Shown here piece by piece: positions 48,001 to 51,000 of a DNA stretch of 64,000 nt. The stretch is from Escherichia coli. GTDB taxonomy: Bacteria > Pseudomonadota > Gammaproteobacteria > Enterobacterales > Enterobacteriaceae. Position 1 is the first letter of the stretch. Each line of letters opens with the position of its first letter. A program made the position numbers. The stretch lies in NCBI RefSeq assembly GCF_965641715.1, contig NZ_OZ282453.1. One strand, written 5' to 3'.

Positions 48001-51000
48001 ACTGCTGTCTGGCTTTTTTGATTTCAGAATTAGCCTGACAGGCAATGCTGCGAAGGGCGTTTTCTTGCTGAGGTGTCACTGAACAAGCCCCATGTCGGCA
48101 AGCATAAGCACACAGAATATAAAGCCCGCTGCCAGAAAAATGCATTCAGTGGTTGTCATACCTGGTCTCTCTCATCTGCTTCTGCTTTCGCCACCATCAT
48201 TTCCAGCTTTTGTGAAAGGGATGTGGCTAACGTATGAAATTCTTCGTCTGTTTCTACTGGTATTGGCACAAACCTGACTCCAATTTGAGCAAGGCTATGT
48301 GCCATCTCAATACTCGTTCTTAACTCAACAGGAGATGCTTTGTGCATACCGCCTCCCGTTTATTATTTATCTTCTCAGCCAGCCGCTGTGCTTTCAGTGG
48401 ATTTCTGATAACAGAAAGGCCGGGAAATACCCAGCCTCGCTTTGTAACGGAGTAGACGAAAGTGATCGCGCCTACCCGGATATTATCGTGAGGATGCTTC
48501 ATCACCATTGCTCCCCAAATACAAAACCAATTTCAGCCAGTGCCTCGTCCATTTTTTCGATGAACTCCGGCACCATCTCGTCAAAACTCGCCATGTAATT
48601 TTCATCCCGCTCAACCACGACATAATGCAGGCCTTCACGCTTCATTCGTGGGTCATAGTTGGCAAAGTACCAGGCATCTTTTCGCGTCACCCACATGCTG
48701 TACTGCACCTGGGCCATGTAAGCCGACTTTATGGCCTCGAAACCACCGAGCCGGAATTTCATGAAATCCCGGGAGGTAAACGGGCATTTCAGTTCAAGGC
48801 CGTTGCCGTCACTGCATAAACCATCGGGAGAGCAGGCGGTGCGCATACTTTCGTCGCGATAGATGATCGGGGATTCAGTAACATTCACGCCGGAAGTGAA
48901 CTCAAAGAGGGCTCTGGCGTCGTTCTCGTACTGTTTTCCCCAGGCCAGCGCCTTAGCGTTAACTTCCGGAGCCACACCGGTGCAAACCTCGGCAAGCAGG
49001 GTGTGGAAGTAGGACATTTTCATGTCAGGCCATTTCTTTCCGGAGCGGGGTTTTGCTATCACATTGTGAACTTCTGAAGCGGTGATGACGCCGAGCCGTA
49101 ATTTGTGCCACGCATCATCCCCCTGTTCGACAGCTCTCACGTCGATCCCGGTACGCTGCAGGATAATGTCCGGTGTCATGCAGCCACCTTCTGTTCAGAG
49201 GCTTTCTGTTTCAGGAATCCAAGAGCTTTCACTGCTTCGGCCTGTGTCAGTTCTGACGATGCGCGAATGTCGCGGCGAAATATCTGGGAACAGAGCGGCA
49301 ATAAGTCGTCATCCCATGTTTTGTCCAGGGCAATCAGCAGAGTGTTAATCTCCTGCATGGTTTCATCGTTAACCGGAGTGATGTCGCGTTCCGGCTGACG
49401 TTCTGCAGTGTATGCGGTATTTTCGACAATGCGCTCGGCTTCATCCTTGTCATAGATACCCGCAAATCCGAAGGCCAGACGGGCACACTGAATCATGGCT
49501 TTATGCCGTAACATCCGTTTGGGATGCGACTGCCACGGCCCCGTAATTTCTCTGCCTTCGCGGGTTTTGAATGGTTCGCGGCGGCATTCATCCATCCACT
49601 CGGTAACGCAGATCGGATGATTACGGTCCTTGCGGTAAATCCGGCATGTACAGGATTCATTGTCCTGCTCAAAGTCCATGCCATCAAACTGCTGGTTTTC
49701 ATTGATGATGCGGGACCAGCCATCAACGCCCACCACCGGAACGATGCCATTCTGCTTATCAGGAAAGGCGTAAATTTCTTTCGTCCACGGATTAAGGCCG
49801 TACTGGTTGGCAACGATCAGTAATGCGATGAACTGCGCATCGCTGGCATCACCTTTAAATGCCGTCTGGCGAAGAGTGGTGATCAGTTCCTGTGGGTCGA
49901 CAGAATCCATGCCGACACGTTCAGCCAGCCTCCCTGCCAGCGTTGCGAGTGCTGTACTCATCCGTTTTATACCTCTGAATCAATATCAACCTGGTGGTGA
50001 GCAATGGTTTCAACCATGTACCGGATGTGTTCTGCCATGCGCTCCTGAAACTCAACATCGTCATCAAACGCACGGGTAATGGCTTTTTTGCTGGCCCCGT
50101 GGCGTTGTAAATGATCGATGCAGAGTGATTCAAACAGGTGCTGGGGCAGACCTTTTTCCATGTCGTCTGCCAGTTCTGCCTCTTTCTCTTCACGGGCGAT
50201 CTGCTGGTAGTGACGCGCCCAGCTCTGAGCCTCAAGACGATCCTGAATGTAATAAGCGTTCATGGCTGAACTCCTGAAAATGGCTGTGAAAATATCGCCC
50301 GCGAAATGCCAGGCTGATTAGGAAAACAGGAAAGGGGGTTAGTGAATGCTTTTGCTTGATCTCAGTTTCAGTATTAATATCCATTTTTTATAAGCGTCGA
50401 CGGCCTCACGAAACATCTTTTCATCGCGAATAAAAGTGGCGATAGTGAATTTAGTCTGGATAGCCATAATTGTTTGATCCATTTTTTGGGACTCCTGGCT
50501 GATTAAGTATGTCGATAAGGCGTTTCCATCCGTCACGTAATTTACGGGTGATTCGTTCAAGTAAAGATTCGGAAGGGCAGCCAGCAACAGGCCACCCTGC
50601 AATGGCATATTGCATGGTGTGCTCCTTATTTATACATAACGAAAAACGCCTCGAGTGAAGCGTTATTAGTATGCGGTAACGCAGCGCTCAGGCGGCTTTG
50701 ATAGTCATATCATCTGAATCAAATATTCCTGATGTATCGATATCGGTAATTCTTATTCCTTCGCTACCATCCATTGGAGGCCATCCTTCCTGACCATTTC
50801 CATCATTCCAGTCGAACTCACACACAACACCATATGCATTTAAGTCGCTTGAAATTGCTATAAGCAGAGCATGTTGCGCCAGCATGATTAATACAGCATT
50901 TAATACAGAGCCGTGTTTATTGAGTCGGTATTCAGAGTCTGACCAGAAATTATTAATCTGGTGAAGTTTTTCCTCTGTCATTACGTCATGGTCGATTTCA

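Follow-up and report, generated by a model that had tools for sequence, protein, structure and literature searches.

Overlapping cIII and kil genes in a lambda-like Escherichia coli prophage, and the 89-residue reading frame that runs upstream from kil

Which genes are encoded where a mechanical list of open reading frames (ORFs) places an 89-aa ORF across a 54-aa ORF in another frame? The question arises on the minus strand of the window, the whole 64,000-nucleotide stretch of the Escherichia coli contig NZ_OZ282453.1 that we analyzed, and it comes down to whether the longer ORF is a gene in its own right or the frame of the small phage gene kil read upstream through its neighbor cIII. The overlap of these two genes, both of their proteins, and the RNA switch of cIII have been described for lambda for decades. 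We consider it highly probable that the locus is the cIII-kil pair of a lambda-like prophage, with a Kil of 47 aa, and that the 89-aa ORF is not a gene. The features on which the argument draws are as follows.

50451..50615, minus strand: cIII coding sequence, 54 aa, from the ORF, the alignment to lambda CIII, and Pfam PF02061
50339..50482, minus strand: kil coding sequence, 47 aa, from the alignment to lambda Kil and Pfam PF06301
50451..50482, minus strand: stretch shared by cIII and kil, 32 nt, holding CIII codons 45-54 plus the stop and Kil codons 1-11 (the first two bases of codon 11)
50492..50496, minus strand: AGGAG Shine-Dalgarno of kil, 9 nt before the kil ATG, within CIII codons Gln39-Pro40-Gly41-Val42
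50570..50628, minus strand: cIII 5' RNA thermoregulator, Rfam RF01804 (Lambda_thermo)
50622..50627, minus strand: cIII Shine-Dalgarno AAGGAG, inside the RNA thermoregulator
50613..50615, minus strand: cIII AUG, inside the RNA thermoregulator
50480..50482, minus strand: kil AUG, start of the 47-aa Kil
50606..50608, minus strand: AUG of the 89-aa ORF, 7 nt after the cIII ATG and inside the RNA thermoregulator
50339..50608, minus strand: 89-aa ORF of the mechanical list, the kil frame running upstream through cIII
50483..50608, minus strand: 42-codon upstream extension of the kil frame, wholly inside cIII and very probably the non-genic part of the 89-aa ORF
50645..50664, minus strand: terminator-like hairpin upstream of cIII from a pattern scan, at a position equivalent to tL2A/tL2B annotated in HK620 (context)

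In the ORF list, the 54-aa ORF at 50451..50615 (minus strand) begins MQYAIAGWPV and has the sequence MQYAIAGWPVAGCPSESLLERITRKLRDGWKRLIDILNQPGVPKNGSNNYGYPD. The 89-aa ORF divides into 42 extension residues, MPLQGGLLLAALPNLYLNESPVNYVTDGNALSTYLISQESQK, and a last 47 residues (MDQTIMAIQTKF...SSKSIH) that correspond to 50339..50482. The ATG at the head of these 47 residues is nucleotide 134 of cIII, so the two frames differ, and it holds this place in all 82 sequences examined. The 89-aa ORF exists because the kil frame meets no stop codon across cIII and finds an ATG 7 nt after that of cIII. The first-pass annotation, made by hand translation, had described cIII and kil as lying in different frames with a 32-nt overlap, as in lambda; the ORF list and the lambda annotation bear out all of its coordinates, and in lambda, where kil lies at 33187..33330 and cIII at 33299..33463, the overlap is 32 nt too.

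The likeness to lambda (NC_001416) extends to the same two genes, their order and strand relation, their lengths (47 and 54 aa), and the position of the overlap (lambda 33299..33330). By BLASTP, the window's Kil is identical to lambda Kil at 45 of 47 residues (E 8e-33), differing by L5I and G19R, and its CIII is identical to lambda CIII at 53 of 54 (E 1e-40), with T49N as the sole difference; this alignment had been proposed beforehand as the check on the two hand translations, and it is close rather than poor. At the DNA level, some 500 nt around cIII and kil match lambda at 98% identity, and with so close a match to a reference genome, chance can be set aside. Four nucleotide differences from lambda fall within the two genes, two of them silent; base 50470 alters both proteins at once, giving Kil L5I and CIII T49N, and one further difference gives Kil G19R. 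The cIII start region and the RNA thermoregulator are identical to those of lambda.

Profile searches place both proteins and the RNA element in their expected families. Kil scores 60.8 bits against Pfam Lambda_Kil (PF06301; cutoff 27.6), with coverage of residues 2-32 of the 47-aa form, and CIII scores 105.4 bits against Lambda_CIII (PF02061; cutoff 25.7). The RNA element scores 88.5 bits against Rfam RF01804 (gathering score 50, E 7e-22), matching model positions 1-59 of 59 and spanning the cIII Shine-Dalgarno and AUG. Against NCBIfam, no family was matched by Kil (in its 47-aa and 89-aa forms), CIII, Gam, or a 50-aa ORF near gam. The order on the minus strand is bet, gam, kil, cIII, ea10, as in lambda, and kil, between cIII and gam, overlaps cIII at its 3' end. 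The pair has bet, gam (PF06064), and exo (YqaJ) to one side and ea10 (DUF2528), sieB, and a CI-type repressor to the other. Overlaps among kil, cIII, and gam are stated in the literature (PMC3961180). Judged by sequence and position, then, the window's Kil, CIII, and Lambda_thermo belong to these families, while the functions of the proteins are taken from the literature.

That the 89-aa ORF might itself be the true kil, or a real second isoform, was weighed against the same material. Such a protein would use the cIII Shine-Dalgarno and carry the 42-residue extension at its N-terminus. The ORF is open and has an ATG, both the extension and this ATG are kept in every lambda-type sequence seen, and 89 aa is the length used in UniRef (VKIL_LAMBD) and many NCBI records. 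The alignment to the Pfam Kil model, however, begins at residue 44 of the longer ORF (residue 2 in the 47-aa form), and the extension has no Pfam coverage. The frame is moreover closed in relatives, by a TGA 7 codons upstream of the kil ATG in the Salmonella phages epsilon34 and PSP2-22, which have no in-frame start, and 25 codons upstream in P22; in SE22, it is open upstream but the ATG of the extension is replaced. The Kil proteins of epsilon34 and PSP2-22, about 53% identical by tblastn, begin at the shared ATG (MDKSLMAIQ...). As the first-pass annotation had it, the ORF at 50339..50608 is the kil frame extended upstream: coordinates, Pfam coverage, and the closed frames of relatives agree.

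The distribution of substitutions also speaks against a coding extension. Seven sequences compared over cIII codons 3-44 have 18, 10, and 34 variable sites at the first, second, and third cIII codon positions; counted in the kil frame, the same sites become 10, 34, and 18, and this peak at the second position is unlike the pattern of a coding frame. Within kil codons 2-32, the corresponding numbers by kil codon position are 11, 6, and 16. An IMG/VR scan with the CIII alignment listed the 80 closest loci, at 98-100% identity, and so samples population variation, adding no distant lineages; among these loci, the cIII-only part has six polymorphic sites, four of them at third positions of cIII codons, and all four, silent in cIII, alter a residue of the kil frame. 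One result leans the other way. Of synonymous cIII recodings, only 1.2% (codons chosen uniformly) to 4.1% (codons chosen by local usage) leave the 42 upstream codons of the kil frame free of stops, in a single post hoc test, so that its openness is a mild oddity, somewhat less expected than under pure chance. We rejected a longer real gene as the reading of this openness, given that the frame is closed in epsilon34, PSP2-22, and P22 and given the substitution pattern.

Initiation signals and published genetics point to the shorter form as well. The spacing is 9 nt from AGGAG to the kil ATG and 13 nt from the GGAG of cIII to the start of the 89-aa ORF, whose AUG is paired in the Rfam consensus structure. 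In lambda, the cloned kil ORF causes filamentation by itself, a prophage stays Kil+ when its cIII start is destroyed, killing is lost when the kil start is destroyed, and supF rescues an amber mutant in codon 31 of kil (PMC3961180). The literature gives Kil as a peptide of 47 aa, and the 47-aa ORF is sufficient for filamentation (PMC3961180, PMC11762379). On all of this, we regard the 89-aa ORF as a very improbable kil or second isoform. The kil start-codon mutant is also a missense mutant of the 89-aa protein, and so by itself leaves room for a longer minor isoform. Low-level use of the AUG at 50606..50608 (minus strand) would then yield an N-extended Kil of 89 aa, tied in lambda-type phages to the same RNA switch as cIII; what speaks for it is the frame being open more than recoding predicts and the ATG being kept in all lambda-type sequences, nothing else, and we give it scarcely any chance.

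A third placement of the start would begin Kil at the second in-frame methionine, Met6 (MAIQTKF...), giving a protein of 42 aa and reducing the overlap with cIII to 17 nt. One RefSeq phage record, NC_049948, is annotated in this way, and 42-aa forms occur among deposited proteins. Kil lacking its first five residues still blocks division, and the authors of that work name several Met codons of HK629 Kil at which translation might start (PMC11762379). The distance from AGGAG is nevertheless 24 nt for the Met6 ATG as compared to 9 nt for the first ATG, and every homologue keeps the first ATG and Met1-Asp2, even the epsilon34 Kil at 53% identity. Even the unrelated kil of the P22 type starts at the position of this first ATG, and killing is lost when the annotated kil start is destroyed (PMC3961180). 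We therefore think a Met6 start very unlikely, and take the 47-aa Kil beginning at 50482 forward.

With these limits, the segment would be the cIII-kil part of the leftward early (pL) operon, one mRNA carrying two small genes in different frames. By analogy with lambda, in which orientation and neighbors are identical, both genes would be read from the pL transcript. cIII would be translated from its own AAGGAG and AUG, inside a structured RNA element that would switch its translation on and off. CIII is known to inhibit FtsH and stabilize CII (PMC1838920), and by blocking this protease, it would favor lysogeny here. Translation of kil would start 133 nt further on, at the ATG that follows the AGGAG built into the Gln-Pro-Gly-Val codons of CIII, and its product would block host cell division through FtsZ and ZipA, as lambda Kil causes a ZipA-dependent block of FtsZ ring assembly and filamentation (PMC3961180).

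The signal embedded in CIII is well kept. The kil Shine-Dalgarno region is conserved as CCAGGAGT or CCTGGAGT in lambda, HK620, epsilon34, PSP2-22, P22, and SE22, and the CIII motif NQPGVP (CCAGGAGT) is invariant across all seven CIII sequences compared. A fold of 91 nt around the kil start showed no structure beyond that of shuffled controls (z = 0.54), which gives no support to an RNA structure coupling the translation of kil to that of cIII, and independent initiation at the kil AGGAG and ATG would be the simplest reading. In CIII, residues 14-37, a 24-residue amphipathic region, are essential and sufficient for activity (PMC1838920); they are identical to lambda in the window, and T49N falls in the C-terminal tail. 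Since this tail lies outside residues 14-37, kil is probably the main constraint on the shared stretch.

For Kil, a helix-turn-helix core has been predicted at residues 4-38, turning at Gly19-Asp20, and the C-terminus bears an RSSK/RSK motif (PMC11762379). The window's protein retains the core and RSSK, with the turn residue Gly19 replaced by Arg. Codon 19 (50426..50428, minus strand) encodes Gly in lambda, 434, HK620, epsilon34, and PSP2-22 and in 80 of 82 sequences overall; the two with Arg are the window and locus L019, and the exact G19R protein is found on 149 public contigs. This rare allele may represent an attenuated Kil tolerated in prophages, and with the change in the predicted turn, the activity of the window's Kil is not assured.

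A second kind of variation affects the kil stop codon, which is TAC in place of TAA in 19 of the 80 IMG/VR loci (L021, L077, L042, L054, and others), giving a 54-aa Kil that ends ...SIHYPPFLFS. Disrupting the stop codon abolishes Kil activity (PMC3961180), so these common variants may be inactive alleles.

The first-pass annotation had called the merged frame an annotation trap rather than biology. The trap is real, as the variety of deposited records discussed below attests; "rather than biology" applies to the 89-aa frame only. The cIII/kil overlap itself is a real and conserved gene arrangement. Its length is 8 nt in HK620, epsilon34, and PSP2-22, 20 nt in P22 and SE22, and 32 nt in lambda, 434, and the window, always 2 modulo 3. 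Phages of the HK620/epsilon34 type have homologous CIII (46-48 aa) and Kil (37 aa), and their kil ATG stands at the matching position, behind an identical CCAGGAG in the NQPGV codons; their cIII, though, stops at a TAA 5 nt after the kil ATG. This stop lies within ATGGATAA, where lambda has TCA, and the one base lengthens CIII by 8 residues while changing Kil residue 3 from K to Q. Because the 8-nt form is found in the more divergent lineages, the 32-nt overlap would be the derived state, reached by loss of the cIII stop.

In P22, a CIII homologue (c3) is likewise followed by an overlapping gene from the equivalent ATG after the same Shine-Dalgarno, with a 20-nt overlap and the same frame relation, but the 62-aa P22 Kil (MTIVPVNGT...) has no evident similarity to lambda Kil and is a different gene in the same slot. 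The kil genes of P22 (L009, 640..828) and SE22 (L012, 634..822) both begin at this ATG position, after CCAGGAG/CCTGGAG in the NQPGVP codons. Unrelated genes thus seem to have been exchanged at the kil start, as at a fixed junction.

Closer relatives differ little. Phage 434 encodes an identical CIII, and its Kil differs solely at residue 19. The prophages of E. coli NMBU-W12E19 and TL20 are identical to the window over 361 nt, with kil annotated at 144 nt and cIII at 165 nt. The NMBU-W12E19 prophage adjoins tRNA-Thr/proA, whereas the window begins in Escherichia chromosome of the glk/fry region, a different chromosomal context. Matches to this stretch occur in 2756 of 5426 complete E. coli genomes, or about half.

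The prophage around the pair aligns to lambda and its hybrids at 95-98% identity over about 45.0-59.7 kb of the window. Next to kil, the long lambda gam (138 aa, 32816..33232), whose start overlaps the kil 3' end, is broken in the window by a 1-nt insertion; a 50-aa ORF (50232..50384, minus strand) and a 98-aa gam (49967..50263, minus strand) are found there. Among related loci in which both gam starts were found, the two are in frame in 25 and out of frame in 22, a split that argues for the 98-aa form as the real gene and for a second over-extension trap beside kil.

Several other features of the prophage and its borders were observed. A 2639-aa autotransporter ORF (35762..43681, plus strand) with an ESPR signal peptide, a PATR repeat, an autochaperone domain, and a beta-domain lies immediately beyond the prophage match on the left. 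Between it and exo (43700..48500), we saw no integrase-sized ORF; the ORFs there are 93-204 aa, one of them with DUF2513 and the rest without a Pfam match, and the prophage may have a degraded left end or an integrase located elsewhere. Genes for tRNA-Asn (GTT) and tRNA-Thr (TGT) occupy 58147..58302 (plus strand), inside the late-regulatory region; the similar NMBU-W12E19 prophage has tRNA-Asn, tRNA-Thr, and tRNA-Gly beside its Q antiterminator gene. A terminator-like hairpin with a T run lies at 51083..51104 (minus strand), between ea10 and ral. Two sub-threshold Rfam candidates near 51 kb were rejected as chance: RyhB, at 21.4 bits against a threshold of 55, which probably reflects the terminator shape of this hairpin, and an S15 leader, at 17.6 bits against 39.5.

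Deposited records show how variably the locus has been called. Four phage entries illustrate the range.

LR595859: kil 264 nt, cIII not annotated
FJ184280: kil 222 nt, cIII not annotated
NC_049948: kil 129 nt, cIII annotated
PV340572: kil 144 nt, cIII annotated

The 89-aa form of lambda Kil, the sequence of VKIL_LAMBD, occurs on at least 1000 contigs by exact-sequence look-up, and NCBI also lists the 89-aa sequence of the window as Kil. Deposited Kil proteins have lengths of 89, 87, 73, and 47 aa, and also of 96, 82, 79, 76, 67, 54, 50, 49, 48, and 42 aa. In current RefSeq (PGAP) annotation, identical E. coli DNA carries a kil of 144 nt and a cIII of 165 nt, with the same limits as ours.

The identification of an overlapping cIII-kil pair under an over-extended frame is correct and already known; it brings nothing new to phage biology, and its value lies in annotation quality. 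A rule that takes the first ATG or the longest ORF produces an 89-aa "Kil" at this locus and may suppress cIII entirely, an error visible in deposited phage genomes and protein databases. The proper calls for the window are kil at 50339..50482 and cIII at 50451..50615, with no 89-aa ORF.
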